A stretch of DNA of 64,000 nucleotides from a virus. This document shows, in pieces, positions 37,170 to 61,142 of the stretch. The notes under the pieces are model-generated. The model was given only the letters and a program-made list of their open reading frames with translations, was not told the origin of the DNA and ran no database searches. The position numbers were made by a program, and so were the translations under genes. The stretch lies in the IMG/VR virus record IMGVR_UViG_3300030012_002528, positions 1 to 64,000 of that record. One strand, 5' to 3'. How positions within the stretch are numbered: position 1 is the stretch's first letter; every line of letters starts with the position of its first letter.

Positions 37170-37487
37170 ATGGCTACGAACAGTAAGAAATACAACAAGA
37201 AGAACTACAAAAAGTACTGGGGAACTAAGAAGGCCGTTTCTGAACGCTCGGAACGCAACAAGGCCAGACGTATTCTTACAAAGGAAGGCCGTATCAAGAA
37301 AGGAGATGGCAAAGAAGTAGACCATAAGAAGCCCATATCAAAAGGAGGGACTAACTCTAAGAAGAATTTATCAGTCACTACACGCAAAGCTAACAGACGA
37401 AGAGGTGCTGCTATTGCCAACGCAAATAAAAAGAAGAAGACTGGTACTACTAAGAGAAAATCCTCTACTAAAAAGACTAAAAAATAA
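37170..37487 (+). CDS. basic HNH-like protein
   Basis: VDHKKPISKGGTN...NL.......NR. Confidence 0.65.
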   Translation: MATNSKKYNKKNYKKYWGTKKAVSERSERNKARRILTKEGRIKKGDGKEVDHKKPISKGGTNSKKNLSVTTRKANRRRGAAIANANKKKKTGTTKRKSSTKKTKK

Positions 37488-37517
37488 CCGTTAATAGTCC
37501 CATCGTTATTTAGGTTG

Positions 37518-37547
37518 CACCCTCCCCCGTGGAGGGTGTTTTTTTTT
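37518..37547 (+). terminator. intrinsic terminator
   Basis: CACCCTCC-CCGT-GGAGGGTG hairpin plus T-run. Confidence 0.85.
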
Positions 37548-37657
37548 ATGCCCCCTCCCAAAAAATTCACGTTGATGTCGTGTGGAAGTAATATATATTA
37601 CAATACCCCGCTAAAATTTTTTGCAAGGTACCCCCCTGTTGATTTTGCAAGTGTTCG

Positions 37658-37784
37658 CGTGTAGGTTTTTGTGTGGGGGTGGGGGGTGTGTGGAGAGGTA
37701 GGTTTGTGGTGTGTGGTGGTGTGGGGGTGGTGGGGGTGTAGGTATGTTGTTGTTGGTAGTGTTGTTTCTTTGTTTGTGTGGTGG
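37658..37784 (+). repeat. G/T-only low-complexity tract (G-quadruplex potential)
   Basis: About 125 nt almost free of C and A, with four runs of 5-6 G. Confidence 0.8.
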
Positions 37785-37854
37785 CTCGCTGGCGTGCGCT
37801 CGTCTTTTCTTATATATATAAGTTATATTTATTATAATAATAATGTCCTTTTAA

Positions 37855-37886
37855 TTTGGATAATAGAAATATAATTCGTATATTCA
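37855..37886 (+). promoter_or_regulatory. first early promoter
   Basis: TTTG-N20-TATATTCA. Confidence 0.55.
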
Positions 37887-37985
37887 TACTATCGGAGGGG
37901 ATGTATCCTTTGATATTGTTCTTTGAAATCTTGGTAAGTCCTACAGATTGTAGGCAGTATTTTTTTACCTACTAAATTTTGAACA

Positions 37986-38318
37986 ATGAAATTACGATAT
38001 CAACTTGCGATGTTATTCGCTACATTATTCCAATTACTTGCTATGACATTCTTAGTCTTGTTTTATGACCTTGTCTTTCATACCTGTAATGACATATCGC
38101 CAACCTTCGCGCTTGGCTCTTTATATTGTCAGATAGTTGCATTGGCTCTGTACTTTGTTGCTGATTACTTACTCTCTAAGAAAGGCGACTCTCAGCAAAG
38201 CGCACCAAAGCCTAAGCGACATTATAAAGAGTGGTCAGAACGTAGATTCAATATCTTGTTTGCGCTCTGTATCTTTGCTTTGTATGTTTGCTTTATGGTT
38301 TTTATTTGTAGCCATTAA
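37986..38318 (+). CDS. three-TM membrane protein
   Basis: Three hydrophobic segments. Confidence 0.6.
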   Translation: MKLRYQLAMLFATLFQLLAMTFLVLFYDLVFHTCNDISPTFALGSLYCQIVALALYFVADYLLSKKGDSQQSAPKPKRHYKEWSERRFNILFALCIFALYVCFMVFICSH

Positions 38319-38325
38319 TTGTTAA

Positions 38326-38341
38326 GCCCCCGAAAGGGGGC
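38326..38341 (+). terminator. GNRA hairpin
   Basis: GCCCCC-GAAA-GGGGGC. Confidence 0.6.
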
Positions 38342-38367
38342 GTTTGTTTACCCTTTAATTTTTAAAT

Positions 38368-38610
38368 ATGTCAGTAATTAACATTTATAAAAACGAAGCG
38401 TTACAATATCGTGATGCCTTAAGTAACGCCATTGATACGCTTGAATCGGAATTAAAAAAGTTAACCGATAGAGCACCTACAGTAATTGAAACCATCAGTG
38501 ATGGAGACCTTTACTTAATCGAGAGTTACGCTGAGAGCATTCGATTGCTTGAAAAGATGATGAAGCAGATAGAGGATAATGTTTCCACGCCTGCTGAACC
38601 TATTATTTAA
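38368..38610 (+). CDS. hypothetical coiled-coil protein
   Basis: 80 aa ORF followed by a terminator. Confidence 0.6.
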   Translation: MSVINIYKNEALQYRDALSNAIDTLESELKKLTDRAPTVIETISDGDLYLIESYAESIRLLEKMMKQIEDNVSTPAEPII

Positions 38611-38616
38611 CGCACT

Positions 38617-38703
38617 AAGCCTCGCCTTCTGGGTGGGGCTTTTTTTTTGCCTCATCACGGGCAAGCCGTGATAAAGAATTGAGGCGAGCGAGCGAGAAAA
38701 AAA
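38617..38703 (+). repeat. cassette boundary element 1 (terminator, hairpin, GTGATAAAGA, A-run)
   Basis: Core at 38668-38677; ATCACGG/CCGTGAT hairpin. Confidence 0.8.
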
Positions 38704-38761
38704 TGACATAAAAAATTAGGATATGTAAGAAAAATTTTGTATACGTGTGCGTGAGCATTTC

Positions 38762-38880
38762 TTAACAAATTTTAACGAAATTTATTTGCATAGTTTAAAA
38801 TGCCGTCAGAAGCCCATAGAGACGTTTTAAGAGCATTTGGTGTGGTTTTGGATCCATCACACACGAGACTCTGAGTTTTG
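38762..38880 (+). repeat. long direct repeat, copy A
   Basis: Ungapped match to 43695-43813. Confidence 0.8.
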
Positions 38881-39093
38881 CCCTTAGATGCAATTGTTAA
38901 TAACTTTTTCAATTAAATTTGGATAGGTCAATTATTTTTCGTATACGCGCATACGTGTGCATTAGTGTAATGGGTGTTAAAATGCGTTAACATTCCTTAA
39001 CACTTTTTTTATACATAGGATTTGTTTTATCCAAATTGTTTTACTATATTCGTAGAAGAGATGGAGGGGTGGCTTTAACTTAAAAACTGTAAT

Positions 39094-39480
39094 ATGACAG
39101 CGAACGAACGAATACTGACTTGTATCAGTAAAGACTTTCCCGAAGCAATAGTGCAAAGGGCAAAGGAATTGGGTACGACTCTTGTTGACTTTAAAATGGG
39201 GGTTTTTGATGCGGAAACTAATTGCTTGATGGCAACCTTTGACAAGGTCGATGTGGACGATGATTCGATAGTGGTGCAAACGGCTATGACCTTGCAACTG
39301 ATGGAGCACGTAGGCTTTAGAATACAAACGGCTGAGGAGTCGAACTTGACTCTAAAACATCCAACCTTAGTTTTCTTCTTATGCTTTCCACCACAAAAGT
39401 TGATAGACCATGTGCGTGTAGAACTTGACCTTGATGACATACTCAGCAAGGCAATGGATGGAGACGATGACGATGAGTAA
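39094..39480 (+). CDS. hypothetical protein
   Basis: 128 aa with its own promoter at 39021-39052. Confidence 0.65.
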   Translation: MTANERILTCISKDFPEAIVQRAKELGTTLVDFKMGVFDAETNCLMATFDKVDVDDDSIVVQTAMTLQLMEHVGFRIQTAEESNLTLKHPTLVFFLCFPPQKLIDHVRVELDLDDILSKAMDGDDDDE

Positions 39481-39547
39481 AATTGATGGGGTATGGGGCT
39501 ACCTTAACGGTAGCCCCTTTTATAAAAAAATTAAAAATAAAAAACAG

Positions 39548-39691
39548 ATGAAAAAGTTAGTGTATATTGTTATTGGGTTTATTATTGTAGGCATGGTTTC
39601 TACATCATGTAGTAGAATTAACAGTTGTAAAGGACATCCTGGAATAACGCAGGATTTCGAGAACACCCAACCTAAAGGAGAACATTCTTAA
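39548..39691 (+). CDS. small lipoprotein (47 aa)
   Basis: MKK, hydrophobic stretch, then VSTSC lipobox-like signal. Confidence 0.55.
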   Translation: MKKLVYIVIGFIIVGMVSTSCSRINSCKGHPGITQDFENTQPKGEHS

Positions 39692-39712
39692 AATACGGTT
39701 TTTTTGTTCAAT

Positions 39713-39796
39713 GCCTCACCATATGGTGGGGCTTTTTTTTTGCCTAATCACGGCTTTGCCGTGATAAAGAATGCGCCCGAAAAACACGAAAAAAAA
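39713..39796 (+). repeat. cassette boundary element 2
   Basis: Terminator, ATCACGGC-TTT-GCCGTGAT hairpin, core at 39761-39770. Confidence 0.8.
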
Positions 39797-39969
39797 GTTA
39801 TCAACATTGTGTGGATAACTTTATTTGTTTATGTAAATTATTTTTTGTATTCGCGTATACGCATATTTAGATGTTAATTTTTTTTAACATTCGTTAACAC
39901 GTTTTTTGTTGCTTTTAATTTGGATAAAAGGAATTTATTACTATCTTTGTTGAAGTAAAACGAAACATT

Positions 39970-40680
39970 ATGGCAATAAATAATTATAATTTTAGGACAG
40001 GTAACATAGTACATTCTTTAGATGTTAAACATTCGGCAAATTCGAAAATAGGGAAAGGTATAGTATTGCAAACGTATCATTACAGTATTGAACAGGTAGA
40101 AAATAATGATTTTACCTTGGATGCATTTAACTGTATGGACTGTCCATATAGTTTTAATCAAAACAATGGTAAAAGTGGTAAATGCTATACTCATAAAGGT
40201 ATGCAGTTAATGGGGTTATTATCTAAACTTGAAAGCCTACACAAACAAAATTTGCAAGGTAAGATAAAAGAATTTAATTCAGATAATTTTAGAAAGTTTA
40301 TTTCCCATAAATCAATCAAGACAGTTGACCTTATCCGATTCGGTGCCTATGGCGAAGCGGTTACACTACCTTTAGAAGTTAGGGATACATTATTCGATGT
40401 TAAAAATATTCTAAAGTGCAAAGTTACGTCATATACGCATCAATGGAGAACGGCAAACGAAACCCGTTTCATGGCTTCTACGCATAACCTTGCCGAAATG
40501 CTACAAGCGAAAAGACTAGGTTACCGATGCTTTACCGTAACTTCTGAAGCAATAGAAGATGCTTTTAATTGTCCTGCTTCTAAAGAAAGCGAACGTAAAA
40601 AGACCTGTGTACAATGTGGTCTATGCGATGGTCAAGTTAGCGGCAAACGTAAAAAGGATATCTATATCCTTAAGCACTAA
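39970..40680 (+). CDS. Cys-cluster protein, Gp88/radical-SAM-like
   Basis: CMDCP...CY, IRFGAYGE, YTHQW, FMAS, CP...TCVQCGLC. Confidence 0.55.
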   Translation: MAINNYNFRTGNIVHSLDVKHSANSKIGKGIVLQTYHYSIEQVENNDFTLDAFNCMDCPYSFNQNNGKSGKCYTHKGMQLMGLLSKLESLHKQNLQGKIKEFNSDNFRKFISHKSIKTVDLIRFGAYGEAVTLPLEVRDTLFDVKNILKCKVTSYTHQWRTANETRFMASTHNLAEMLQAKRLGYRCFTVTSEAIEDAFNCPASKESERKKTCVQCGLCDGQVSGKRKKDIYILKH

Positions 40681-40745
40681 AAAATAGGGCAATTAATTTT
40701 GCCCTTTCAATTCTTTTTATTAACTTCAATTTAAATTAAAAAACA

Positions 40746-40940
40746 ATGGGATACAAAACAATATTTTATTACGAAACCTACGATGGCATAAGACATCATT
40801 TCCTAACACGATTTTGCTACCGTCCAAGTGCAACATTGGCTTGGAAACAATTAAAGAAAATGCTTAGTGAGAAGAAAGATAATATTCTCTGTATAGGTTA
40901 TGATATAGGAGATGAAAATATTATTGAAATTAAATCATGA
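40746..40940 (+). CDS. hypothetical protein
   Basis: 64 aa ORF. Confidence 0.5.
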   Translation: MGYKTIFYYETYDGIRHHFLTRFCYRPSATLAWKQLKKMLSEKKDNILCIGYDIGDENIIEIKS

Positions 40941-41074
40941 ATATATCAGTTAAACTAAACTATAACGGAAGTATAACTTTATTTGCAGTAGTGCAAGGAC
41001 AGTTAATAAGTAAAGAATATTCTTGTGGAGTAGGTAAAGCGAAAAAACTTTTTCAAGAAAAATTTGGAAATTAG
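40937..41074 (+). CDS. small hypothetical protein (45 aa)
   Basis: Manual translation MNISVKLNYNGSITLFAVVQGQL...; ATGA overlap. Confidence 0.5.
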   Translation: MNISVKLNYNGSITLFAVVQGQLISKEYSCGVGKAKKLFQEKFGN

Positions 41075-41110
41075 AAAAACATTTTGTAACTTAGAGGAAA
41101 CAATGAAACA

Positions 41111-41314
41111 ATGAAAAAAGAAATTTATAAAATAGGAACACTACTAAAAGAGACTAAACTATCAAATGCTCAATTAACGAAAGTTATACAGACAAGTATG
41201 GATGACTTAATCCAAGCAGGAGATACAGAAGACGAAGCCCTAGATAGACTATCCAAGATAATGAATATATCAGGAGTCAAAGTAAGGAAAGCATACCTAG
41301 GGAATTTGAAATAA
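41111..41314 (+). CDS. small helical protein (possible HTH)
   Basis: 67 aa, LSKIMNISGVKVRKAY. Confidence 0.5.
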   Translation: MKKEIYKIGTLLKETKLSNAQLTKVIQTSMDDLIQAGDTEDEALDRLSKIMNISGVKVRKAYLGNLK

Positions 41315-41334
41315 TTTGTTTCGTTGTTCATTTG

Positions 41335-41454
41335 AGCCTTGCTCTCACTAGACCGAGATGCTTTAGATTAGCACGGGGTCTACCGAGGGTAAGGCTTTTT
41401 TTTTGCCACGATAAATCGTGATAAAGAAGTGAGGCAAATAAAAAATAAAAAAAA
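41335..41454 (+). repeat. cassette boundary element 3 with extended hairpin
   Basis: 62-nt hairpin, T-run, CACGAT-AA-ATCGTG, core at 41418-41427. Confidence 0.8.
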
Positions 41455-41593
41455 CAGGCGTAAAAACAAAGATACGACTTTTTTTTAAATTATCCAAATT
41501 TTTCTTGCGAAAGTTACCAACATATTGTCGCTGAGAATGTTGATAAGTTTTATTTGGATTTTAAATTTATTTGTTTTATATTAGAGGAAACAA

Positions 41594-41947
41594 ATGAGAT
41601 ATATTATGCAATTAAACACTATTGAAGACTTGAGACATCACGGAGACTTGGCTCTCTTATTACTTAAGATAAGAATGACCTTAACCTATAAGAAGGTAGA
41701 AGGATTCATTGTACACGCTGACGAGGATAAGATAAGTTTTATTCCCGAAGGAGAGTACCATCCAACTCTTTGTAAAAAAGAACTTGCACCCAGTGGTTAC
41801 GAATGGGACGAGGGGAGAGATGTTCTTGAAATTTGTGTAAACTGCGAAGAGAACTACGAAGGATGCGAGCCCACCTTACCATACAATAAACTTGCGGAGG
41901 TATTATGTGGAGGCAAGTTTTACGGAGACGTTGCTTTCGGTAAGTAA
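41594..41947 (+). CDS. hypothetical protein
   Basis: 117 aa with its own promoter and terminator. Confidence 0.6.
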   Translation: MRYIMQLNTIEDLRHHGDLALLLLKIRMTLTYKKVEGFIVHADEDKISFIPEGEYHPTLCKKELAPSGYEWDEGRDVLEICVNCEENYEGCEPTLPYNKLAEVLCGGKFYGDVAFGK

Positions 41948-41977
41948 CGCACACTGGTAGCACTGTTTTCGGTTAGA

Positions 41978-42066
41978 GTCCTCACCCAATGGGTGGGGAT
42001 TTTTTTTAACTTTTTTTTTGAAATTTTTTTTGTGATAAAGAGTGTGCGCCCGAGGTGAAAAAAAAA
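41978..42066 (+). repeat. cassette boundary element 4
   Basis: Terminator, T-runs, core at 42032-42041, A-run. Confidence 0.75.
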
Positions 42067-42245
42067 GAGTCCTCCACAAAGATACAACTTTTTTTCGATA
42101 TATCCAAATTATTTTAGATAAATTTTTTTAACGTTTATTAACAGCGTGGTAATAAATTAAGTTTGGTATTTCCATTTATTTTAACTAACTTTGAGAGGTC
42201 AACGACCTCGAACGGGGTTGCTTTTTTTAACCTTAAATGTAAACA

Positions 42246-42497
42246 ATGAAACATTTAGCATTAAGTGAGATGAATGGAAATACTTTCTATTCAAATTCGT
42301 TAGGAATGACTCTTAGCGTAAAAGACAACAAAGTCTTTGATTACAAAGGTATTGAGATGCCTATTGATGACTTGCAAGTAGACACCTTGTACGTTGAATT
42401 TCTTGACCAACCAAAGTTTCAAGAACAAAGGTACAAAGAGTATCTTGCAAAGGTAAAAGAAATGGGCAACTATTCGCCTCTATTGTTTAACTCTTAA
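42246..42497 (+). CDS. hypothetical protein
   Basis: 83 aa, promoter at 42162-42193. Confidence 0.6.
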   Translation: MKHLALSEMNGNTFYSNSLGMTLSVKDNKVFDYKGIEMPIDDLQVDTLYVEFLDQPKFQEQRYKEYLAKVKEMGNYSPLLFNS

Positions 42498-42508
42498 ATT
42501 GTTTTCAA

Positions 42509-42772
42509 ATGGAAAATGCTTTAAACCCAAATGTCACTGGCATTTACATCTTGGAAGGTAGACCTACCCTTCCCTACCGTTACTATCTCAAGAAGATAGA
42601 TTCTACTCATTTTCAAATGGCATACGTTGCTGATGGCGAGGATGCTTCGATTGTGAATGATGCTTTTTGTTACCATATTGGCGAGCATCGTCAGAGACCT
42701 TACTATGCTGACGTTAGGTCTTGGCTAAAAGGAGGCGAAGCCCCAACTGACAAGACCTACACTTGGGAATAG
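42509..42772 (+). CDS. hypothetical protein
   Basis: 87 aa ORF. Confidence 0.6.
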   Translation: MENALNPNVTGIYILEGRPTLPYRYYLKKIDSTHFQMAYVADGEDASIVNDAFCYHIGEHRQRPYYADVRSWLKGGEAPTDKTYTWE

Positions 42773-42775
42773 GCT

Positions 42776-42885
42776 CACGTGCCCACCGAGAGGTGGGTAT
42801 CGTGATAAAGAGTGTGCGAGAAAAGACCGAAAAAAAAAGCAATGGGAGGGCGAGAAAAGAAAAAAATCAAAAATGTCTTTATCAC
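42776..42885 (+). repeat. cassette boundary element 5 plus inverted core
   Basis: Core at 42802-42811; reverse-complement copy at 42876-42885. Confidence 0.8.
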
Positions 42886-43062
42886 AAATTCAAGACTCCT
42901 CCACTAAGATACAAAATACTTTTCAATAATCCAAACACTTTAACATTTTTTTTAATTTAATTTTAACACTCGTTAACTTGTTTTTAACACCCTTTAACAT
43001 TTTGGCTATTGCATATGTCCTTACAATGTACTACTTTTGTCTTAAACAAATTATTTAAATTT

Positions 43063-43224
43063 ATGAAAGCAGTAATCCGTAATATCAAGACAGGTAAGTA
43101 TCGCGTAGCCCCTGTGTACGCACGTTATAAAAAAGACCGCGTTGAGGTCATACGCGCGTTGGAGCAGTCGCTACCCGCCCACGAGCGGGTGGTGGAGGTG
43201 CATCTGAACGAAAGGGGCAAGTAG
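43063..43224 (+). CDS. small hypothetical protein (53 aa)
   Basis: ATG at 43063 after a TACTTTTG promoter box; GC-richer codons. Confidence 0.55.
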   Translation: MKAVIRNIKTGKYRVAPVYARYKKDRVEVIRALEQSLPAHERVVEVHLNERGK

Positions 43225-43230
43225 CCCCAA

Positions 43231-43288
43231 GCCCACCGAAAGGTGGGCATCGTGATAAAGAATGTGCGTGAGCAAAAAAAAAAAAAAA
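43231..43288 (+). repeat. cassette boundary element 6
   Basis: GCCCACC-GAAA-GGTGGGC, core at 43252-43261, A15. Confidence 0.8.
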
Positions 43289-43694
43289 TTATCCCATACT
43301 AAGTTACGATTTTTTTTTGATATATCCAAATAAAGTTATCAACACGATGTGGGTAAGTTGTAGGTGTTAAATTATGTTATATATTAGGTTATATCAGATA
43401 AATTAACTATATGGGGGTGTCGGCATTTCGGCAAAGTTATTTTACCTACAATAGTTAACATACTTTAACTATATATATTATTATATATAACATATATATA
43501 CTATAGAGCCATATAACGGCATATTCCTTTTCCTTTTAGATAAATTAACGTGTTGCGTTAACACTTTTTAACGCAGAATACTTGCGTATGTGCAAGTTGT
43601 GACAGGTAGAGTCTTCTCACACTCGGTTTTTTGGGTTTGGAAAATAGTGGTAAAATGTGTAACTTAGTGGGTTATTATAAGCATACTTTTGCAA

Positions 43695-43813
43695 TTAACG
43701 ATTTTTAACACAATATATTTGGATAATTTAAAATCCCTTGAGAGGCTCATATTTGCGTTTTAAGGGCATTTGAGGTTCTTTTGGAACAACCACACACGAA
43801 GGTCTGAGTTTTG
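43695..43813 (+). repeat. long direct repeat, copy B
   Basis: Ungapped match to 38762-38880. Confidence 0.8.
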
Positions 43814-44068
43814 AGCATACAGACGATTTGACCTATGATTAGGACATATGGTGTTGGTAAGTTGTTAGTAACTATATATATGTATATTTGGATATGTCAT
43901 ATATTCTTATATACGTGTGCGTGTATTCCTATTGTAGGTAAATTTCTTAGCCGAAATTTTTTTAACATCTGTTAACACGTAGATTGATAATTTAATTAGA
44001 ATAATTCAAAATGAATCACTATATTTACATCAGCGATGGAGGGGATGCCTAATACTAAATAATACATT

Positions 44069-44974: not shown

Positions 44975-44982
44975 AGTAAAAT

Positions 44983-45043: not shown

Positions 45044-45057
45044 ATAAAAATAAAGCA

Positions 45058-53068: not shown

Positions 53069-53146
53069 TATGAATGATTTGATAGTATTGGCTATTTGCC
53101 TTTTTGTAACGTGGATTAGTTTAAGATAAATTAAAAATTAGAAATT

Positions 53147-53809: not shown

Positions 53810-53829
53810 AAAGTTTAAAAATAGATACA

Positions 53830-54336: not shown

Positions 54337-54677
54337 TGATAGAGAATTTTATAGAGATAGAAGTTTTTAATTTTATTTTAGTTCCCACTACAAATGAGTG
54401 GGTGCTAGAAGCAAATTATTCAACGATAGCGCAGGGTGTCCTTAAAGATTTTAAGTACGGAGAAACGTCAGATAAAACTTTTAGAATAAAAGACGGCAAA
54501 GCACATATACTACAAGCAAAACTTTTCAAGGATGGAGATGTGTATAGGTTGTTGCTTAACCCATTGTACAGAAAAAATAAAAATAGTAAATTGCTTGTAG
54601 ATGAAATGACATCACACGAAATTGATGTTAATTTAATGACAGAGGAGGATTACTTTTCCTATTCTTTCGAAATATAA
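54333..54677 (+). CDS. hypothetical protein
   Basis: 114 aa ORF. Confidence 0.6.
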   Translation: MMIENFIEIEVFNFILVPTTNEWVLEANYSTIAQGVLKDFKYGETSDKTFRIKDGKAHILQAKLFKDGDVYRLLLNPLYRKNKNSKLLVDEMTSHEIDVNLMTEEDYFSYSFEI

Positions 54678-54678
54678 T

Positions 54679-54981
54679 ATGGATAAAATGATTGATGATT
54701 TTTTTACTTTTAATAAAGACTTTGAATTTAGTTTTGACCCTACATCGTTTAGTTTAAATGTGTGTCGTAAAATTTGCGATGCTTTAGATGAAGGTAAAGA
54801 CCAATGTGATATAGTATCCGTTGGTAAAGATGACTACGAGTTTAATATGATTGCAGAAGAGTCTGAGTTCTTAGACATACTTGAAAAGAATATATCAAGA
54901 GTTGAGGAAACAGAAGACTATGAATTGTGTGGAAGAATTCTATCTTGGATAAATAAATTAAAAGAAAATGGCAAAAGTTAA
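54679..54981 (+). CDS. protein with C-terminal UVR-like helix pair
   Basis: EETEDYELC..I. Confidence 0.5.
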   Translation: MDKMIDDFFTFNKDFEFSFDPTSFSLNVCRKICDALDEGKDQCDIVSVGKDDYEFNMIAEESEFLDILEKNISRVEETEDYELCGRILSWINKLKENGKS

Positions 54982-55105
54982 ATACGGAAGCGAAGCGTTG
55001 GCTACTCCTAAAAGGAAGCGTAAAGGTGTTCACGCCAAGAGTAAGAACTCTAAGCATAAGGGGGCTAAGTATTATGCTAAAAAATATAAAGGACAGGGGC
55101 GATGA
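54968..55105 (+). CDS. small basic protein (45 aa)
   Basis: Manual translation ...KRKRKGVHAKSK...KKYKGQGR. Confidence 0.6.
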   Translation: MAKVKYGSEALATPKRKRKGVHAKSKNSKHKGAKYYAKKYKGQGR

Positions 55106-55278
55106 AAAAATTAGGTAAAATAACAAGGTCAGCAATAATTAAAAGACTGATGAATGTGTTACCTAAAGAGTTGGCAGTAGAAGAAGACTTGGAATGCAGG
55201 GGTAATGAATCACTAAGTGATATGTATCTCATAGCCACAGGTCAATTATTTGAAGTTATAGAGAATGATGAAAATTAA
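55102..55278 (+). CDS. small hypothetical protein (58 aa)
   Basis: Manual translation; ATGA overlap. Confidence 0.5.
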   Translation: MKKLGKITRSAIIKRLMNVLPKELAVEEDLECRGNESLSDMYLIATGQLFEVIENDEN

Positions 55279-55702
55279 ACTGACATTTGTCTTTATCACG
55301 TTTTTTTGTTTATCAGTTTTTGGACAATTAAGCGAAGGTGTTTTTTATAAGGTAAAAAAAGTTGTAGATGGTGACACCTTTTGGTTGTACGATTCTGATT
55401 GGGATACTTATAAAGTAAGACTCATCGGTGTGAATACTCCCGAAGCCTACACATTTGAAAATGTAACAGAAGAAGTAGGAGGTAAAGAAGCATCTGCGTA
55501 CACGAGGTATTTAATAGAAGGAGAGTACGTGAGACTTGAATTTGATGTGGAAAAGTATGATAAGTATAACAGAGTTTTAGCGTATGTTTGGTTACACAAC
55601 GGAGAAATGCTAAATGCTAAACTTATAGAAAAAGGTCACGCTGAAGTGGTAAGGTATTATCCTAATGTAAAGTATTTTAATTACTTTAAGCGTTTGGAAT
55701 AA
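55265..55702 (+). CDS. thermonuclease (SNase-like) with signal peptide
   Basis: VVDGDT, VRLIGVNTPE, DKYNRVLAYV. Confidence 0.9.
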   Translation: MMKIKLTFVFITFFCLSVFGQLSEGVFYKVKKVVDGDTFWLYDSDWDTYKVRLIGVNTPEAYTFENVTEEVGGKEASAYTRYLIEGEYVRLEFDVEKYDKYNRVLAYVWLHNGEMLNAKLIEKGHAEVVRYYPNVKYFNYFKRLE

Positions 55703-55708
55703 CAATAT

Positions 55709-55782
55709 GCTCCCTTAGCTCAACGGGATAGAGCAACAGATTTCTAATCTGTAGGTTAAAGGTTCGAGTCCTTTAGGGAGTA
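55709..55782 (+). tRNA. tRNA-Arg(UCU)
   Basis: Acceptor GCTCCCT/AGGGAGT, anticodon arm ACAGA-TTTCTAA-TCTGT, GGTTCGAGTCC T-arm; CCA not encoded. Confidence 0.92.
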
Positions 55783-55795
55783 CTAAATTTATACT

Positions 55796-55966
55796 ATGAA
55801 AATTTCTAAATCAAATTTAATTATATTAGGTACGGCTGTTATAAGCCTTGTTTTTTCTGAATACTTTTACTTTACAGGTAATGTAGAACAAGCGATGTTC
55901 GTAGGGCAGTGGGTTCCTTCCATCTTATGTGCAGGAGTCTACTTTAACATTCTAAAAAATAAGTGA
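55796..55966 (+). CDS. small two-TM protein (56 aa)
   Basis: Manual translation ...AMFVGQWVPSIL... Confidence 0.55.
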   Translation: MKISKSNLIILGTAVISLVFSEYFYFTGNVEQAMFVGQWVPSILCAGVYFNILKNK

Positions 55967-56160
55967 TGGTAGAGTTACTTGCAGTATTCATCACCATAAT
56001 GTTCTCTTATGGTATTTACTCCCTAATGTCAGAGGGTGATACTGAGAATGACCCTGTTGGTGACATAGATTCAAGGTTTATTGGGAAGATGATTAGGTTC
56101 TTCTTGATGTTTATTTTTAGCATATTTACTATTGTAATAGTAGGTTATAATTTATTTTAA
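55963..56160 (+). CDS. small two-TM protein
   Basis: Two hydrophobic segments. Confidence 0.5.
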   Translation: MMVELLAVFITIMFSYGIYSLMSEGDTENDPVGDIDSRFIGKMIRFFLMFIFSIFTIVIVGYNLF

Positions 56161-56164
56161 TACT

Positions 56165-56590
56165 ATGAAAAAGTTTTTTATATTTGTTGCAACAATGGTT
56201 ACACTAAATGTTTATGCACAAGACCAAGTTCCAATTGAGTTCTTGGTGGATGCAATGATTCACGTAGAGTCACGAGGGGATTCAACTGCGATTGGAGATG
56301 GAGGTAAAGCAGTAGGCGTATTACAGATACATCCTATCATGGTTCGTGAAGTGAATAGGATATTAGGGAAGAATGGTAGTAATGTTCGGTATACCTATGA
56401 TGATAGATATAGCGTAGAGAAGTCTAAAGAGATGTTCTATGTATGGAAAGAATACTATCACCCAAACTCTTCATACGAGAAGATAGCAAGGTGCTGGAAT
56501 GGTGGAACGAATGGGCATATGTTTTATTGTACCAATCGTTATTGGAGAAAGGTAAGTGACCAATTGGAAACTTTAGCAATGGTAGACTAA
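56165..56590 (+). CDS. lysozyme-like/lytic transglycosylase with signal peptide
   Basis: VES, AVGVLQI, AR.WNGG, YW.KV. Confidence 0.75.
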   Translation: MKKFFIFVATMVTLNVYAQDQVPIEFLVDAMIHVESRGDSTAIGDGGKAVGVLQIHPIMVREVNRILGKNGSNVRYTYDDRYSVEKSKEMFYVWKEYYHPNSSYEKIARCWNGGTNGHMFYCTNRYWRKVSDQLETLAMVD

Positions 56591-56778
56591 TGAAATATAA
56601 AGTAATAGTAGACGGAGTAGAAAGATATCTAAGTAGTTTAGATGTGGATTGGATGGTGTCAAGGGAATATGTTAAGTTCCGTTACGACCATTATGAGTCT
56701 CACGATGATAGCGTGGATATGGTTTGTAAAAAGTTCAACCTAAAAAAAGAGTTGGTTGAACATATGGTTTTAAATTAA
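56590..56778 (+). CDS. hypothetical protein
   Basis: 62 aa coupled ORF. Confidence 0.5.
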   Translation: MKYKVIVDGVERYLSSLDVDWMVSREYVKFRYDHYESHDDSVDMVCKKFNLKKELVEHMVLN

Positions 56779-56783
56779 ATAAA

Positions 56784-57233
56784 ATGGGAGAGAAAAAAGA
56801 ACACACCCTTTTTGCAGATGGGTTTGATGATGCGATATTAGGATTTAGTCACGAATGGACTGAAACACCAAAGGTAGTTTATTCTAAATTAAAAATGGTG
56901 GAGGTTTGTGAGGAACAAGGCATGAGCGTAGAGGAAGCCATCGAATACTTAGAGTATAATGTGTGGGGTGCTTATGTCGGTGATGGAACTCCCATCTACG
57001 CTGATGACCTTGCAGGTACTAAGAGAGAGGACGTTGCGTACACTCTCGACCTATATATGGGTGGAGATGGTAGTGGATATAACCCTACCTTTCCTTTATG
57101 CCCTCCTGAGGACTCCCCACAACTTAGTGAGAGCGACTCCGATGGCAATACCACCGAGAAGGGGCAAACCCTTAAAGAAAACGACTCCACCGAGAACAGC
57201 CGAAGCAGTAGCGATGAAGATGTCAGAAGTTAA
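56784..57233 (+). CDS. conserved phage protein
   Basis: ADGFDDAILG...EEAIEY.EYNV.GAYVG..TP. Confidence 0.6.
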   Translation: MGEKKEHTLFADGFDDAILGFSHEWTETPKVVYSKLKMVEVCEEQGMSVEEAIEYLEYNVWGAYVGDGTPIYADDLAGTKREDVAYTLDLYMGGDGSGYNPTFPLCPPEDSPQLSESDSDGNTTEKGQTLKENDSTENSRSSSDEDVRS

Positions 57234-57330
57234 TACCGATTTAATTTTATCTGTGATTTTCATGTTGTTATTTTTTTAATAATTTCATTTAAAAGTACTA
57301 ATTTTATTTGAATTAAACAAATATGTTACA

Positions 57331-57690
57331 ATGTATAAAAAGAGTAAATTTGGAAGACTAAGAAAACATAATTTGAAACCTTTAATTGAAAGCAAAGTAC
57401 CATTGGTTGTTTGCGAACAGGAGGAAACAAGGTTTACAGGTTACAATGTTAGACCTATAGATGTTTTCGTAGCATTCCCAAAAAAATACACAAGCATGGT
57501 TGAAAGCCCTTTAAAAGTAAAAGACCCTAATAGGAAAGACCTTGTTATACTGCCCCTGTCAGTAGTAGACAAGGCATATTTTGAAGAAAACTTAAATAAA
57601 TTTAATAAGTCTTATGAAACAGCAGGAGAGAGAGTATATGAAACTTCATACAAATCACTCAAAGAATACCTCAACAAAGGAAAGGTTTGA
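57331..57690 (+). CDS. hypothetical protein
   Basis: 119 aa ORF. Confidence 0.55.
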   Translation: MYKKSKFGRLRKHNLKPLIESKVPLVVCEQEETRFTGYNVRPIDVFVAFPKKYTSMVESPLKVKDPNRKDLVILPLSVVDKAYFEENLNKFNKSYETAGERVYETSYKSLKEYLNKGKV

Positions 57691-57862
57691 GAAAAGAAAG
57701 AGTGGTGATTTTATTTTCATTTACGACAATAAAAACAAGAAATACATACCTAAAGAATTTTATGCACCAAGTGGTGGAGAAATAGGTTGCAACATTTTCT
57801 TGCGTAAGTTAAAAGAAAATAGTAAATTAGCGTACAATACAAATAAAAGAAGAAATGGTTAA
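57614..57862 (+). CDS. hypothetical protein
   Basis: 82 aa overlapping ORF; start uncertain. Confidence 0.4.
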   Translation: MKQQEREYMKLHTNHSKNTSTKERFEKRKSGDFIFIYDNKNKKYIPKEFYAPSGGEIGCNIFLRKLKENSKLAYNTNKRRNG

Positions 57863-58286
57863 TTTTAATAAGACAGGTAGAAAGGATTATACAGAATATG
57901 AAGTTTATACTGACGAGTATTCTGGAGGTAATGGTACAGAGCAATTAGCAGGTTATGTTACCAAGTTTGGAGACAAGAAATGGGCATTTAGAACCATTGA
58001 CCCTTTCTTTACTGATGTAATGCCTACTGATACCTTTGATTCTCGTAAAGATGCAGTATTTAATGGAATAGAGTCTCTACGATTTGTAGCAGTTGCTAAA
58101 CCTGTTTCTGAGCCTATAGAAAAGGAAATAGACTTATCTATGCTAGGTCAGTATAGAAGAGTCAATAATAATAGAAAGCCAACAAGAGGTAGAAAAATTC
58201 AATATATCCAACGTGCTAAACGATTGGACAATGGCGAGTTAGTTTATTTAAATTCATATAAGAAAATACATCACGAGCGTGTATAG
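57855..58286 (+). CDS. hypothetical protein
   Basis: 143 aa ORF. Confidence 0.6.
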   Translation: MVNFNKTGRKDYTEYEVYTDEYSGGNGTEQLAGYVTKFGDKKWAFRTIDPFFTDVMPTDTFDSRKDAVFNGIESLRFVAVAKPVSEPIEKEIDLSMLGQYRRVNNNRKPTRGRKIQYIQRAKRLDNGELVYLNSYKKIHHERV

Positions 58287-59202
58287 ATATGAGTATGCCA
58301 AAGCAAGGCACGGAAGAAATTTCAAAGTCAACTGCCCTCGATGTGGAGGAGTTAAACGATTTAATTTATTCTTTGACAATAAAGAAGATAAGTTATGTGA
58401 TTCGCAGTATGGTAAATGCGACAGAGTTTACCAATGTGGGTATGAGAATCGTCCACAAGGTCAAGCAGTTTTAAAACAAGATGAAATAAAAACAGAAAAA
58501 CCTCCACTTTCTGTTATGCCCTTGTCTATTGTCAAGGATTCTATACAAAAATGTTGGAGCAACACAGATGCTCTCTTAGGCTTTATAATGGACAAGTGGG
58601 GAGTAGATATCGCTACTAAGGTGTTCGTGCGTTACAACCTTGTTTCTGTGCCTTTTAATGGGGGTTTTGCCCCTATGTTTTGGTTCATAGATGACAAGAA
58701 GCAAGTTCGTAGTGGTAAGATAATGAATTATGAATTAAGAGGAGGAGAACCTCGCAGGACTAAACACGACAAGGCTTGGAAAAATGTGAAATGGCTACAC
58801 TCTAAAATAGATAATTACAATTTTGAAATGTGTTTCTATGGCTCGCATATTCTCACAATGATGCCCGATGCAGAAGTACACATAGTAGAGTCAGAGAAAA
58901 CTGCATTGATAATGTCTTGTGTAAAGCCTCAACACATTTGGTTAGCGACATCATCTGTTACTAACTTGCAAGAACACTTTTTACCTAATTTAAAAGACAG
59001 AAAAGTGGTACTGCACCCCGACAAAGGAGAAAGGAGTTTTGGATATTGGAAACTTAAAGCAGAAGAGTTTAGAAAAAAAAATTTGGCAAAGTCAATAAAT
59101 ATATCTACCTTTGTACAAGATACAGAATTTTTAGGTGAGGGAGATGACCTTGCCGATTACGTTTTAAAAACAACAAAGTATGAGAGCATTAAAAAACATT
59201 GA
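58279..59202 (+). CDS. Zn-finger/TOPRIM primase-like protein (DUF6371-like)
   Basis: CPRC...GKCDR...CGY, GKIM.Y, IVESEKTA, WLAT, GDDLADY. Confidence 0.7.
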   Translation: MYRYEYAKARHGRNFKVNCPRCGGVKRFNLFFDNKEDKLCDSQYGKCDRVYQCGYENRPQGQAVLKQDEIKTEKPPLSVMPLSIVKDSIQKCWSNTDALLGFIMDKWGVDIATKVFVRYNLVSVPFNGGFAPMFWFIDDKKQVRSGKIMNYELRGGEPRRTKHDKAWKNVKWLHSKIDNYNFEMCFYGSHILTMMPDAEVHIVESEKTALIMSCVKPQHIWLATSSVTNLQEHFLPNLKDRKVVLHPDKGERSFGYWKLKAEEFRKKNLAKSINISTFVQDTEFLGEGDDLADYVLKTTKYESIKKH

Positions 59203-60031
59203 GTTAGGAAAGGTACTATTCATCAGTATTGAGTGCGTACCCCAAGAAAATGACTTCCCTATTGAAGGACTACTCTATGATAGTTGGACAGACGGAGGCA
59301 ATGAGACAGAAGCGTATGCAGAGACAGCACCATTATTCCCTGAGTATGGTAGAATTTTCTGTGTGTCTTTAGGATATGTTAGTAATCATCAATTAAATAT
59401 CAAGACAATTAAGGGGGAGGAGAAGGAAATCATTGAGACATTATTCAAAATGGTGGATGCTTTTCAAAATAGTTGGAGTACTATTCATCTATGTGGGCAC
59501 TCTGTAAAGAGTTTTATTTTACCTTATGTTATGCGTAGAGCAATCGTCAACGATATTCCTGTTCACTACTTATTTGATGCTTCGGGTCTTAAACCTTGGG
59601 ATATCACTTGGATGTACGACATCAAAGAGTTATGGCAAGGTACTGCTTACAAATCAGCCTCTCTTCTATCACTTGCTCACACTTTTAACTTAGACTATGC
59701 AGAAAGTATTATTTTAGGTAAAGATGTGTCTACTATGTACGTGAATGATGAGATAGAAGAAATCACTCACCGATGTGAAGTAAATGTTCGCCTATGTCAC
59801 GATGTTATAAAAAAGATGGCAGGAATCAAAACTGATTGGAAAGACGAGGTGATTGAAGATAAGAACTTAGGCACATTAGAAAAGGCATATTATAATGTAA
59901 TTAACATAAAAGACATAAAGGGTTTAAGAGATAAATTGGCCTCAATGAATCTAGATAAGGATGCTACTAAGAACATTTTAGAAACAATGTTTAAAGGGAA
60001 TGTGCCTTCAGAATTACAAGAACTCTTGTAA
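59180..60031 (+). CDS. PolB-type 3'-5' exonuclease homolog with degenerate active site
   Basis: A.L.PEYGRI.C.S.G, LCGH..K.F..PY..RR, KPW. Confidence 0.65.
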   Translation: MRALKNIELGKVLFISIECVPQENDFPIEGLLYDSWTDGGNETEAYAETAPLFPEYGRIFCVSLGYVSNHQLNIKTIKGEEKEIIETLFKMVDAFQNSWSTIHLCGHSVKSFILPYVMRRAIVNDIPVHYLFDASGLKPWDITWMYDIKELWQGTAYKSASLLSLAHTFNLDYAESIILGKDVSTMYVNDEIEEITHRCEVNVRLCHDVIKKMAGIKTDWKDEVIEDKNLGTLEKAYYNVINIKDIKGLRDKLASMNLDKDATKNILETMFKGNVPSELQELL

Positions 60032-60276
60032 TGAGAACTATATGTTTTCTTGTTTCATTTTTATTTTGTATATTTGCAAAAGGTCAGCACATCTATTTTG
60101 ATGTGACCCTTGAAGAAATTGATACAGTGGCAAATGAAGATGGATATAGGGTAGTTAAAACCCTAGAACAAGGAAACATAGTGTGCTATCTATACTTAGA
60201 AAGTGACACGATTAAAATAGGATACAACAACGAGATGAGTAAACCCTCATTCATAATTTATAGAAAAGAAGAGTAA
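60031..60276 (+). CDS. small secreted protein
   Basis: Signal-peptide-like N-terminus. Confidence 0.5.
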   Translation: MRTICFLVSFLFCIFAKGQHIYFDVTLEEIDTVANEDGYRVVKTLEQGNIVCYLYLESDTIKIGYNNEMSKPSFIIYRKEE

Positions 60277-60392
60277 GATGTTTAGTGCAATAATTATTAT
60301 AGTTTGTTTAACAATCATATTTGGTATATTTTACTATGCAGGTAAGACTATGCCCGAAGGAGACTTCTTAGAGAATGATGATTTTAACATAG

Positions 60393-61142
60393 ATGACGAA
60401 GAATAAGATGAGTTTAGAATTACCTAAAACGTATAGTAAAGAACAATGGGAACGTGGGGGCAGTCGTCCCGAACACGAGAAGTTCATAGGGATGCCTGTA
60501 ACAAGTTGGTCACAAGTAGAGTCTTGGACGGCTAAGAAAGGATTCAACACAGGTATGGTAGGTAACAAAGAGTATATGATTAGATACTTTTTAGGTGAGC
60601 GATTCCCTGATATGGGTTGGGGACAGTTTGGTACTGAGGTGGAGGATTGTGTTACTCTTGGCGATTGCGAACCATTTACTCCTAAAGAACTTGAAACTAT
60701 AAAAGACATCAAACCTCTTGGGGTATTTCAAGAAGAGATAGTCATTGATTTTGGTGACTTCTGTCTTCTTGGTTATATTGATGATATGTCTGAACCAAAA
60801 GATGGTGTAGTAGATATAGTGAGAGACTATAAGACTAAATCAAAAAGTTCTAAGGCTGACTTACACGACCCAAAGAAACTTCAATTAGAATTATATATCT
60901 TAGGTCTTCAGCAAAGAGGATTAAAAGTAGAGAACGCAGAGTATGTTATCATAGAAAGGTTGGGGGGTAGAGAGTGTATGAATGGTGCAGGGAGAAAGTC
61001 TTTACGTATAGGCACTAATGTTTGGAGAGAAACATATATGTTTTCTGATAAGTCTATAGCAAGAGCAGAAGCTATTGTAAGAGAGACGGTGAAGGAAATA
61101 TCTAATCATTATAAGATATTTAAAATATTAAATGCTAAGTAA
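60393..61142 (+). CDS. PD-(D/E)XK nuclease
   Basis: SWSQ, GYID, DYKT, QLELY. Confidence 0.75.
   Translation: MTKNKMSLELPKTYSKEQWERGGSRPEHEKFIGMPVTSWSQVESWTAKKGFNTGMVGNKEYMIRYFLGERFPDMGWGQFGTEVEDCVTLGDCEPFTPKELETIKDIKPLGVFQEEIVIDFGDFCLLGYIDDMSEPKDGVVDIVRDYKTKSKSSKADLHDPKKLQLELYILGLQQRGLKVENAEYVIIERLGGRECMNGAGRKSLRIGTNVWRETYMFSDKSIARAEAIVRETVKEISNHYKIFKILNAK

Follow-up and report, generated by a model that had tools for sequence, protein, structure and literature searches.

An uncultured, marine-type phage carries a stretch of 24–31 kb, composed of small early genes, from which at least seven restriction-type short words are nearly gone while being retained across the rest of the genome. This stretch is probably an early gene module that is exposed first to host restriction, like the first-step-transfer DNA of T5 or the leading DNA of T7-type phages. 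Restriction pressure on only part of a genome is experimentally known in few model groups, namely the T5-like phages and (2025) T7-like marine phages. T5-like phages are subject to Type I and Type II restriction only when sites fall in the first-step-transfer DNA (PMC10644984), and Murciavirus is subject to Type I restriction only when the motif lies in the first-injected region; prior whole-genome analyses ignored where sites sit in the genome (PMC12455610).

The DNA studied here is IMG/VR record IMGVR_UViG_3300030012_002528, a contig of 92,261 bp of which positions 1–64,000 form the window, i.e. the whole stretch of 64,000 nucleotides. The earlier note on this DNA had placed it in a crAss-like phage, a loose term of which a distant likeness stands. 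TerL is 31% identical over 93% of its length to that of the Cellulophaga Lightbulbvirus phages phi17:2 and phi4:1, and about 25% identical across 40–60% of the length to that of Crassvirales; PHROG terminase and portal matches were found. A giant virion RNA polymerase with a DFDxD motif is a Crassvirales trait (10.1101/2020.03.07.982082). The motif is absent from four giant ORFs here and from the ORFs of at least 800 aa of the relative G001, in a scan that may miss a divergent enzyme, and the 2379-aa protein has no solved-structure match. The phage is only distantly crAss-like.

Depletion of AGCT and of other words

AGCT occurs 366 times on the whole contig and 214 times in the window, as computed directly from the positions. 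The earlier note had described AGCT as abundant on both sides of a block that holds a single copy, in a tRNA D-arm, where dozens would be expected by chance. Direct computation agrees on all three points: the flanking sites lie at 37388 to the left and 61070 to the right, and the sole AGCT between 37,389 and 61,069 is that at 55717, in the D-arm of tRNA-Arg(TCT). The expected number is 42–135 depending on the model: approximately 126 from the rest-of-genome density (Poisson P about 2e-53 for the one observed; 135 in the comparison with the other words below), 42 from the trinucleotide content of the block itself (Markov), and 52 with synonymous codons permuted inside the block or 71 with codons drawn from non-block usage (minimum over 300 shuffles, 37), the codon-aware expectation being 50–71 overall. 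The non-coding DNA inside the block (3.9 kb) contains only the tRNA copy, and the G+C content of the block is the same as elsewhere in the genome. Codon usage is nearly normal (GCT 29% in the block versus 45% in the rest, AGC 10% versus 8%), and the loss of AGCT therefore sits in codon context and not in codon choice.

The purge is not restricted to AGCT, the word reported in the earlier note; six further word classes are purged from the block as well. Set against what the remainder of the genome predicts, the observed numbers are 11 versus 79 for CTAG, 9 versus 104 for CCAG/CTGG, 0 versus 31 for GGNCC (GGCC being included in the purged class), 1 versus 40 for GCWGC, 1 versus 21 for CCWGG and 17 versus 72 for ACNGT. 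CCAG, a bare four-base asymmetric target, is unusual among known enzymes. Control words in the block are close to expectation (GTAC 84 versus 86, TGCA 91 versus 98, GANTC 80 versus 68), and palindrome counts under a codon-aware model, which the earlier note had proposed as a check, give a low AGCT. Codon-aware shuffles for the other words likewise preserve the depletion in the block and leave genes outside it normal. The non-palindromic words are depleted in both orientations, i.e. symmetrically over the strands, which points to recognition of double-stranded DNA rather than mRNA; the depletion is not an artefact of strand or codon bias. A second tier acts genome-wide: GATC (0 versus about 200), CCGG and CGWCG are missing both here and in all close relatives. 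The sole GATC of the genome is at 38851, in a cassette array described below.

The words differ in the extent of their purge, as shown by the following intervals.

37392..61069, no strand: AGCT-free block as given in the earlier note, single AGCT seen
42576..60124, no strand: purge core, ACNGT absent (gap scan)
61070..64000, no strand: start of the tail, GGNCC, GCWGC, CCWGG and CCAG still purged (gap scan, bins)
61070..62820, plus strand: AGCT-rich island of this genome only, 10 sites (four-way alignment)

Between 44 and 60 kb, 2 kb bins contain no GGNCC, CCWGG, GCWGC or AGCT (the tRNA copy excepted) and two CCAG/CTGG. The left gap edges are clustered at 37.1–42.6 kb, at a non-coding landmark, and the right edges are scattered over 54–71 kb: the gaps end at approximately 54–60 kb for CTAG and ACNGT, at 61–69 kb for AGCT and at 66–71 kb for GGNCC, CCWGG, GCWGC and CCAG. 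The purge of the last four thus extends past the right edge of AGCT to approximately 66–71 kb of the contig, beyond the window and through ribonucleotide reductase genes. Of the two edges proposed by the earlier note, the left is as claimed, whereas the right edge at 61,069 is valid only for AGCT in this genome; nine of the ten AGCT sites of the island are one-base variants in the relatives G001, G006 and G007.

Organization of the module

The block and its borders comprise the following features.

37170..37487, plus strand: small basic HNH-like ORF, last gene ahead of the block, containing the AGCT at 37388
37517..37548, plus strand: strong intrinsic terminator (9 bp G+C stem, T9 run) that ends the upstream plus-strand genes
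37549..37985, no strand: non-coding landmark of approximately 440 bp, containing runs of C6 and G6 together with a G-rich repeat tract (repeat family D12)
37986..43330, plus strand: cassette array of short promoter–gene–terminator units with repeats D4, D11, D14, D18 and D19 and terminators
38762..51929, plus strand: approximately 17 promoter-associated TTAAC-N4-6-TTAAC boxes (repeat families D1, D3 and D10)
44069..44974, plus strand: DUF932 protein (Pfam PF06067, E 1.8e-12), first conserved gene of the module
50507..51192, plus strand: pair of neighbouring small proteins, each bearing a DnaA C-terminal HTH (Pfam Bac_DnaA_C)
53147..53809, plus strand: very acidic protein with a DUF1281_C domain (220 aa, pI 4.25, net charge −28)
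55265..55702, plus strand: Staphylococcal-nuclease-like protein (Pfam SNase, E 7e-17)
55709..55783, plus strand: tRNA-Arg(TCT) (ARAGORN), containing the AGCT at 55717
56784..57233, plus strand: acidic protein with a disordered acidic tail (149 aa, pI 4.08, net charge −22)
59180..60031, plus strand: 3′-5′ exonuclease (Pfam/PHROG matches)
60031..60276, plus strand: small 81-aa ORF between the exonuclease and the next nuclease
60393..61142, plus strand: PD-(D/E)XK nuclease (Pfam/PHROG matches), inside which AGCT reappears at 61070

The HNH-like ORF scores 21.1 bits against Pfam HNH, slightly below the cut-off of 21.4; a homologue in the same layout is present in G002, G004 and G005, which also keep the terminator. 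The purge begins on its left at the landmark, a candidate for the leading genome end, and G015, G012, G014, G008, G001 and G002 likewise have C/G homopolymer runs at the corresponding syntenic boundary. To the right of the landmark lie approximately 50 small rightward ORFs with many terminators and their own rightward promoters. On this side the plus strand carries every credible ORF and each of the 17 TTAAC-box promoters; genes and promoters thus point away from the landmark, as they do from a T7-type leading end, if the landmark is indeed the end. A pattern search of the whole genome on both strands found the boxes only in the block, many of them followed by a TAnnTTTG −7 element. The two DnaA-HTH proteins (Bac_DnaA_C scores of 19.5 bits for the first and 34.1 bits, above the cut-off, for the second) may bind these boxes. 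The cassette array lacks AGCT, GGNCC and GCWGC, is purged less of CCAG, CTAG and ACNGT, and carries most of the CGCG and GCGC of the genome. The genes from the exonuclease to the PD-(D/E)XK nuclease (59180..61142) form the conserved close of the small-ORF module.

No member of the known anti-restriction families was found among the block ORFs by Pfam and PHROG searches, and the only candidates are acidic proteins; the block gave no match to an Ocr-type DNA mimic or a SAM lyase family, and in these general searches no match among the block ORFs searched pointed to the T5 pre-early A1, A2 or dmp. On charge alone, the product of 53147..53809 is a candidate DNA-mimic-type anti-restriction protein, and that of 56784..57233 would be a second candidate on the same basis; the latter has 153 homologues, none of them named, and a poor AlphaFold2 model (pLDDT 60). 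Conjugative elements commonly carry DUF932 genes, and our literature search found no paper tying DUF932 to anti-restriction. DNA methyltransferases (C5, N4/N6, D12) were likewise not found in this genome or in G001, G006, G008, G015 and G021, which makes self-methylation unlikely as the protection of the remaining genome.

Maintenance and conservation of the purge

The purge is maintained by present-day selection. G006, which has diverged by 16% from this genome, and G007 both keep it, and in both the tRNA-Arg(TCT) also retains its AGCT. Under a neutral drift model G006 should have 17 AGCT (never below 8 across 200 simulations) and 18 CTAG, compared with 0 and 3 observed, whereas GTAC and TGCA are unaffected.

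The distant complete relatives G015, G012 and G014, the TerL of which is about 30% identical to that of this phage, have a strong multi-word purge in the same syntenic module. The order of this module is the non-coding landmark, the DUF932 gene, approximately 50 small ORFs and the exonuclease; DUF932 orthologues start it and the exonuclease and PD-(D/E)XK pair follows it in all three. The ACNGT and CCAG purge is common to these relatives and the remaining words are lineage-specific; such recurrence with different word sets would be expected if restriction by hosts acted on only part of the genome. In G015 the gap edges have the same shape, clustered on the left and spread on the right. Several points run against the main reading: AGCT and CTAG are present in the first genes past the landmark in G004 and G005, and depletion of the module is weak in phi17:2 and in G008, the closest complete relative (TerL 60%); the block is also much larger than its T5 and T7 counterparts, yielded no known anti-restriction family, and lacks CCAG, which would be an unusual enzyme target. 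The true crAss-like phage phi14:2 has no such purged block. The close relatives are all `linear' fragments, the present contig lacks about 20 kb, and the complete relatives have end repeats (46–127 bp) of the kind produced by assembly overlaps.

Proposed explanation and its alternatives

We propose that the early module meets host restriction enzymes before the phage neutralizes them, and that selection on this early-exposed DNA would strip it of the target words of host restriction–modification systems on both strands; words of systems that are never neutralized (GATC, CCGG and CGWCG) would be stripped genome-wide. Exposure would most likely be confined to the block by polar, staged or slow entry, with the end of the virion DNA in the landmark at about 37.5–38.0 kb and with entry rightwards, in the direction of the block promoters. 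The early products would then protect the later-entering DNA or outpace restriction there. The graded right tail is more in keeping with gradual entry than with one injection stop. The depletion, its current maintenance, its coincidence with an early-type module and its recurrence in distant relatives partly support the reading of the earlier note, in which the block would enter first and would encode the function that shields the rest. A bolder extension, which we regard as doubtful, is that the nested, word-specific purge lengths are a readable record of slow, transcription-paced entry, each point of return of a word marking the moment at which the matching host system is neutralized, and that the C/G-run landmark and terminator mark a leading end throughout the clade.

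Several other explanations can be considered. The whole genome might enter at once, with late DNA shielded by a co-injected coating protein, a compartment or an unrecognized base modification that spares the early module, or with the early module alone having to survive until it is transcribed. The giant virion proteins encoded by this phage (1246+, 1772, 728 and 2379 aa) could be ejected cargo, DarA/DarB of P1 are cited as a precedent for co-injected protection (as mentioned in PMC12455610), and genes for a GT2 glycosyltransferase and for a homologue of AdoMet decarboxylase (the latter at 66,984–67,355 of the contig) lie downstream. We nevertheless consider this improbable: no mechanism is known by which a single contiguous quarter of a genome is spared while everything else is coated or modified, genes for DNA modification were not recognized, and a polar process accounts better for the sharp left edge and the graded right tail than does whole-genome entry with shielding. 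Self-immunity is also unlikely; here the phage's own nucleases would destroy host DNA and the early module would lack their target words, the remaining genome arriving or replicating once these nucleases are shut off, so that staged exposure is still needed. SNase-like, EndoVII-like, PD-(D/E)XK and HNH-like proteins are indeed encoded in the block or at its edges, and the pre-early genes of T5 degrade host DNA while the escape of the phage DNA is unexplained (PMC10644984). The purged words, however, number at least seven and are unrelated to one another, and the sets differ among lineages with the same nuclease genes, the exonuclease and PD-(D/E)XK pair being conserved although the word sets vary. 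To our knowledge, moreover, nucleases of the SNase and EndoVII types have no sequence specificity.

A mosaic history without positional selection, in which the block is an exchanged pool of accessory genes that inherited its word poverty from donors avoiding the words genome-wide, would account for the variability of the region: G001 has approximately 5 kb of the array (37.5–42.5 kb) replaced by approximately 1.1 kb (alignment gap), the contigs of relatives break within the block or at its edge, there is a recombination joint close to 62.9 kb and the array differs in its word profile (CGCG, GCGC and the single GATC). It is quite unlikely, because the block matches the rest of the genome in G+C content and codon usage and shares its loss of GATC and CCGG, approximately 17 AGCT should have arisen by drift after the split from G006 and none did, the gains and losses in the right flank are in-place point changes, and the purge follows the syntenic module across about 70% TerL divergence; a purge of part of a genome would also be useless unless the remainder is safe by other means. 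A cause unrelated to nucleases, namely avoidance of the words as harmful transcription, replication or binding signals in early genes, could draw on the dense set of cis-elements of the block itself, but is very unlikely, since the avoided words, being short palindromes or of restriction type, are lost from coding and non-coding DNA on both strands and shift among lineages that have the same module.

Comparison with known systems

Early exposure of the module to host restriction, as we propose it, has its closest counterparts in T5 and in T7-like phages. In T5, BF23 and Tequintavirus restriction sites matter only in a contiguous early-gene region and the rest of the genome is site-rich yet insensitive (PMC10644984); the region studied here is alike in that the target words are gone from it but frequent elsewhere, in its long non-coding boundary with repeats, and in containing nucleases alongside numerous small genes whose function is unknown. 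It differs in that at least seven words are purged together, with nested extents, in a phage of unrelated lineage and host phylum; in T5 the region spans about 10 kb (about 8% of the genome) within a terminal repeat, and its two-step entry has been shown experimentally. At 24–31 kb, or approximately a quarter of a genome of approximately 112 kb (the contig plus the missing 20 kb), the block far exceeds the T5 and T7 regions. In the T7-like Murciavirus restriction is confined to motifs in the first-injected DNA, and the leading region is hypervariable, is thought to be a site of anti-defence genes and enters in a polar, transcription-paced manner (PMC12455610), which would yield a graded edge resembling that of the block. 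Murciavirus differs in concerning one Type I motif over a few kilobases, established experimentally, against Type II-like words over tens of kilobases here, seen in sequence only; unlike T7-type phages, this phage has no Ocr homologue that we could find. In conjugative plasmids the leading region differs in its single-stranded conjugative transfer, as opposed to phage ejection. Avoidance of Type II palindromes over whole phage genomes (PMC6286503) is matched here by GATC, CCGG and CGWCG, unlike the present purge, which is limited to one module.

The signature is very clean, with near-absolute loss of about ten words over 16–24 kb and lineage-specific sets across deep divergence, in an uncultured clade the closest cultured relatives of which infect Bacteroidota. 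It makes predictions about the position of the virion DNA end, the direction of entry and the restriction specificities of the hosts, and bears on the design of engineered and therapeutic phages. Few Type II restriction inhibitors are known to us, and the approximately 50 small genes of the module are a place to seek them. If the nested purge lengths do record entry, the leading end, the polarity of entry and the order in which host defences are defeated would be readable from sequence alone in uncultured phages.

Depletion of AGCT in one block

By direct count, the tetranucleotide AGCT has 214 copies in the window (contig bases 1-64,000) and 366 in the full 92,261-bp contig. Between the copies at 37,388 and 61,070 a single one is found, at 55,717 within tRNA-Arg(TCT) (55,709-55,783). 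The density elsewhere predicts 126 copies in this 23.7-kb block (Poisson P ~2e-53), and the block's own trinucleotide composition predicts 42; permuting synonymous codons among the block genes gives an expectation of 52, and drawing codons from the usage of the remaining genes gives 71. The depletion described in the earlier note, and its coordinates, are thus correct. Codon choice, which that note had named as a possible cause, does not account for it: the lowest count in 300 codon shuffles was 37. Since codons able to build AGCT are still in use (GCT for 29% of Ala, AGC for 10% of Ser and CTN for Leu at about the frequency elsewhere), what has been lost is their juxtaposition. The block has a G+C content of 35.6%, versus 37.0% outside.

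Other purged words

All 4- to 6-mers and degenerate palindromes were scanned, with the expectation taken from the rest of the genome.

Word counts in the block (observed; expected)
CTAG: 11; 79
CCAG/CTGG: 9; 104
GGNCC: 0; 31
GGCC: 1; 18
CCWGG: 1; 21
GCWGC: 1; 40
ACNGT: 17; 72
CTGCAG: 0; 10
GTAC (control): 84; 86
TGCA (control): 91; 98
TTAA (control): 249; 189
GANTC (control): 80; 68

Codon-aware shuffles strongly support the loss of AGCT, CTAG, CCAG and ACNGT (z of -5 to -10) and give weaker support for the rarer G+C-rich words (GGNCC, 0 versus 8; GGCC, 1 versus 12), because the block proteins would yield few of these anyway. Genes outside the block agree with their own shuffles (AGCT, 337 versus 289; CTAG, 195 versus 189). 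For words that are not palindromic, the loss affects both coding-strand orientations (CTGG 2 and CCAG 0; GGTCC 0 and GGACC 0; GCAGC 0 and GCTGC 0), which points to the recognition of double-stranded DNA and rules out an mRNA-level cause. Very-short-patch repair, which is expected to enrich CCAG/CTGG, is likewise ruled out as the source of the CTAG loss, as CCAG/CTGG is lost as well. A further set of words is depleted throughout the genome: GATC has one copy in 92 kb (38851, in the cassette array described below) versus ~200 expected, CCGG and CGWCG are absent, and GACGC and CATG are reduced. GATC and CCGG are also missing from all close relatives.

Longest gap for each word (contig coordinates)
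GGNCC: 37,078-68,032
AGCT: 37,388-61,070
GCWGC: 37,407-71,209
CCWGG: 39,638-66,354
GCNGC: 40,640-65,888
ACCAG: 41,954-68,309
CCAG: 42,537-56,494
ACNGT: 42,576-60,124

These gaps are nested, with clustered left edges, the residual spread of which falls within the cassette array, and right edges scattered over 17 kb. In this genome the lowest gap P-value is 1e-29. The same scan of the Cellulophaga phages phi14:2 and phi17:2 gave at best only 1e-4.7 to 1e-4.8, and only for A+T-rich or non-restriction-type words, so that the scan alone does not generate such signals.

Genome layout and the left edge

The contig comprises a leftward structural arm (1-30 kb), a rightward arm (30.5-77 kb) and a leftward giant-protein arm (1246+, 1772, 728 and 2379 amino acids; window 1-3740 and contig 77261-92261), within which it breaks. 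The first genes of the rightward arm encode a RecA/UvsX-like protein and a polymerase exonuclease subunit. Past the non-coding tract lie ~50 small ORFs, the majority without a family, and downstream of the block are ribonucleotide reductase genes, an AdoMet decarboxylase homologue, a helicase, a family A DNA polymerase and a DnaB-like helicase.

Features of the contig
26,002-28,149, leftward: TerL, in the structural arm with portal and capsid proteins
37,517-37,548: strong terminator after an HNH-like ORF, closing the first part of the rightward arm
37549-37985: non-coding tract of ~440 bp with C and G runs, directly past the terminator
44,069-44,974: DUF932, the first conserved gene of the block
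50507-51192: two adjacent DnaA-C HTH proteins, amid TTAAC boxes
Other block ORFs with a family: T4 endoV-like glycosylase, EndoVII-like protein, DUF1281_C protein, SNase-like nuclease, DUF6371 protein with a zinc ribbon, 3'-5' exonuclease and PD-(D/E)XK nuclease

A TTAAC-N4-6-TTAAC box is present in ~17 copies at 38.7-51.9 kb, all on the plus strand and essentially nowhere else in the genome. Many are followed by TAnnTTTG, the -7 element of Bacteroidota promoters, and terminators are three times commoner than in shuffles. Judged by these signals, the block is a module of early type, made up of numerous short transcription units that run rightwards, and the two DnaA domain IV-like HTH proteins may bind the TTAAC boxes. 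In window 37986-43330, short cassettes of promoter, gene and terminator form an array whose boundary elements recur (CGTGATAAAGAA past terminators; a repeat of 134 nt at both 38762 and 43695); the array carries the bulk of the CGCG and GCGC of the genome. A four-copy family of small paralogous genes (window 46539-47272 and 49455-49990; repeat families D2, D5, D6, D16 and D17) is united by an N-terminal start resembling MKENKLIAEFMG and by the motif SWDWLMPVV.

The tract at the left edge of the purge has runs of at least six C and G in every lineage examined (window 37549-37985 here; 39900-40670, ~88.7 kb and ~45.6 kb in the distant relatives G015, G012 and G014, respectively). Our guesses for it are a genome end, a packaging site or an origin. 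Contig ends of relatives near 37-38 kb are non-coincident and were rejected as physical ends, being assembly breaks.

Close relatives and present-day selection

Neither the block nor the structural region gave a near-identity match among GenBank phages. IMG/VR holds relatives with TerL identities of 85-90%. One of these close relatives, G001 (89.8 kb), spans all but the block, its ends mapping to 42.8 and 62.2 kb; ~5 kb of the cassette array (37.5-42.5 kb) is replaced by ~1.1 kb in it. Comparison with G001 shows ~20 kb to be absent between the contig's own ends, which rules out the circular contig suggested by an ORF across the junction. The IMG/VR/CheckV completeness of the record is 61%.

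In two other close relatives, G006 and G007, the homologous block is 70-94% identical in nucleotides and is still clean (AGCT, 2 versus 69 and 4 versus 68.5 expected; GCWGC, 0 versus 28 and 0 versus 20), with the tRNA AGCT retained in both. When the 9.6 kb of G006 alignable to the block was mutated by the observed substitution matrix to 16% divergence (n = 200), drift predicted 17 AGCT (minimum 8), 18 CTAG and 17 CCAG/CTGG, whereas 0, 3 and 2 are observed; GTAC and TGCA are at or above expectation. The purge is therefore maintained now, at this position. On the right flank the boundary shifts by point changes: ten AGCT at 61,070-62,817 are found only in this genome, nine of them being one-base variants in G001, G006 and G007, in which AGCT runs at ~1.3 per kb up to ~69 kb. 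The level of identity changes near 62.9 kb, a sign of a possible recombination joint.

Distant relatives

A TerL profile retrieved complete or nearly complete genomes with TerL identities of ~30%. Three of these (G015, G012 and G014) share the gene order RecA, terminator with C/G-run non-coding tract, DUF932, ~50 small ORFs, exonuclease and PD-(D/E)XK nuclease, and in each of them several words are strongly purged from precisely this syntenic module.

Purged words in distant relatives
G015: ACNGT gap 40,535-56,095 (P 1e-16); CCAG, CATG and CCWGG also purged; GATC partly lost; AGCT normal
G012, 88.3-108.8 kb: TCWGA, ACNGT, GANTC and CCAGA
G014, 44-71.5 kb: CTNAG, ACNGT, CCAG and GANTC

ACNGT and CCAG are common to this genome and the distant relatives; the remaining words are lineage-specific. 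Within the G015 block lacking CCAG/CTGG and ACNGT (40000-56000), CTAG is enriched two- to threefold, and may be a replacement spelling. The module is weakly depleted in G008 (TerL 60%) and phi17:2, and no comparable purged block was found in G013, G016, G018, G020, G021 or phi14:2, which have no such synteny.

Candidate shielding functions

Methyltransferase-based explanations were set aside, as PF00145, PF01555 and PF02086 gave no match in six genomes (this one, G001, G006, G008, G015 and G021); phi17:2 has three annotated DNA methyltransferases. Suggested candidates for a shielding function are DUF932, two very acidic proteins (53147-53809 and 56784-57233; net charge -28 and -22, respectively) and the AdoMet decarboxylase homologue. 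A literature search found no link between DUF932 and anti-restriction. The acidic proteins fall only in unnamed or DUF1281_C clusters of the ESM Atlas, and an AlphaFold2 model of the 149-residue one (pLDDT 60) was too poor for fold comparison. No loci were recovered by a peptide-pattern search based on the exonuclease. The S-adenosylmethionine decarboxylase homologue (contig 66984-67355) lies at the end of the purged tail; speculatively, it could lower SAM for SAM-dependent defence systems.

Interpretation

Since a single cut anywhere is lethal to the genome, a purge of one quarter is of use only where the remainder is safe on other grounds; the known reason for such safety is the order of exposure. 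We consider it fairly probable that the block is the leading region, entering rightwards from the landmark at ~37.5-38 kb, as the earlier note had in part proposed. The purged words would be the sites of host restriction enzymes, and an early shielding function would cover the DNA that enters later. This reading, based wholly on sequence, draws on the early nature of the block and the single direction of its promoters. It also draws on the shape of the purge, which begins sharply at a conserved non-coding landmark and fades gradually to the right, and on the words themselves, which differ between lineages and fall into two tiers, some tolerated nowhere and others in late DNA only.

Self-immunity, in which the block would be spared by nucleases that the phage itself makes early, is a less probable reading; it leaves unexplained the many words that differ between lineages with the same nucleases. 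A mosaic origin of the block is contradicted by the drift test, by shared composition and by conservation across deep divergence, and a regulatory cause of the avoidance is unlikely, given that the loss is symmetric between the strands and that the words are short palindromes or of restriction type. Less probably than under the leading-region reading, late DNA would owe its protection to a protein injected along with it or to a modification that escaped recognition; the sequence offers no support for either.

The earlier label of crAss-like phage fits only loosely, and the phage is probably not a member of Crassvirales in the narrow sense. For TerL, phi17:2 and phi4:1 of Cellulophaga match best (31%), with Crassvirales at ~25% along part of its length. 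No DFDxD RNA polymerase motif turned up in the four giant ORFs here or in G001 ORFs of at least 800 residues, and phi14:2, unlike this phage, has no such purged block.

T5-like phages are subject to Type I and II restriction only via sites in first-step-transfer DNA (PMC10644984), and in T7-like Murciavirus phages restriction acts only when the first-injected DNA carries a Type I motif (PMC12455610); the authors of the latter study argue that restriction is a sub-genomic filter on leading DNA, acting only in phages with defined ends. No description of region-limited palindrome avoidance in the present clade was found in the literature. By analogy, the phenomenon is of the same kind as in T5 and T7; it differs in that the block is larger (24-31 kb), about ten words are purged simultaneously, the extents of the purge are nested and the clade is uncultured, its nearest cultured relatives infecting marine Flavobacteriia.
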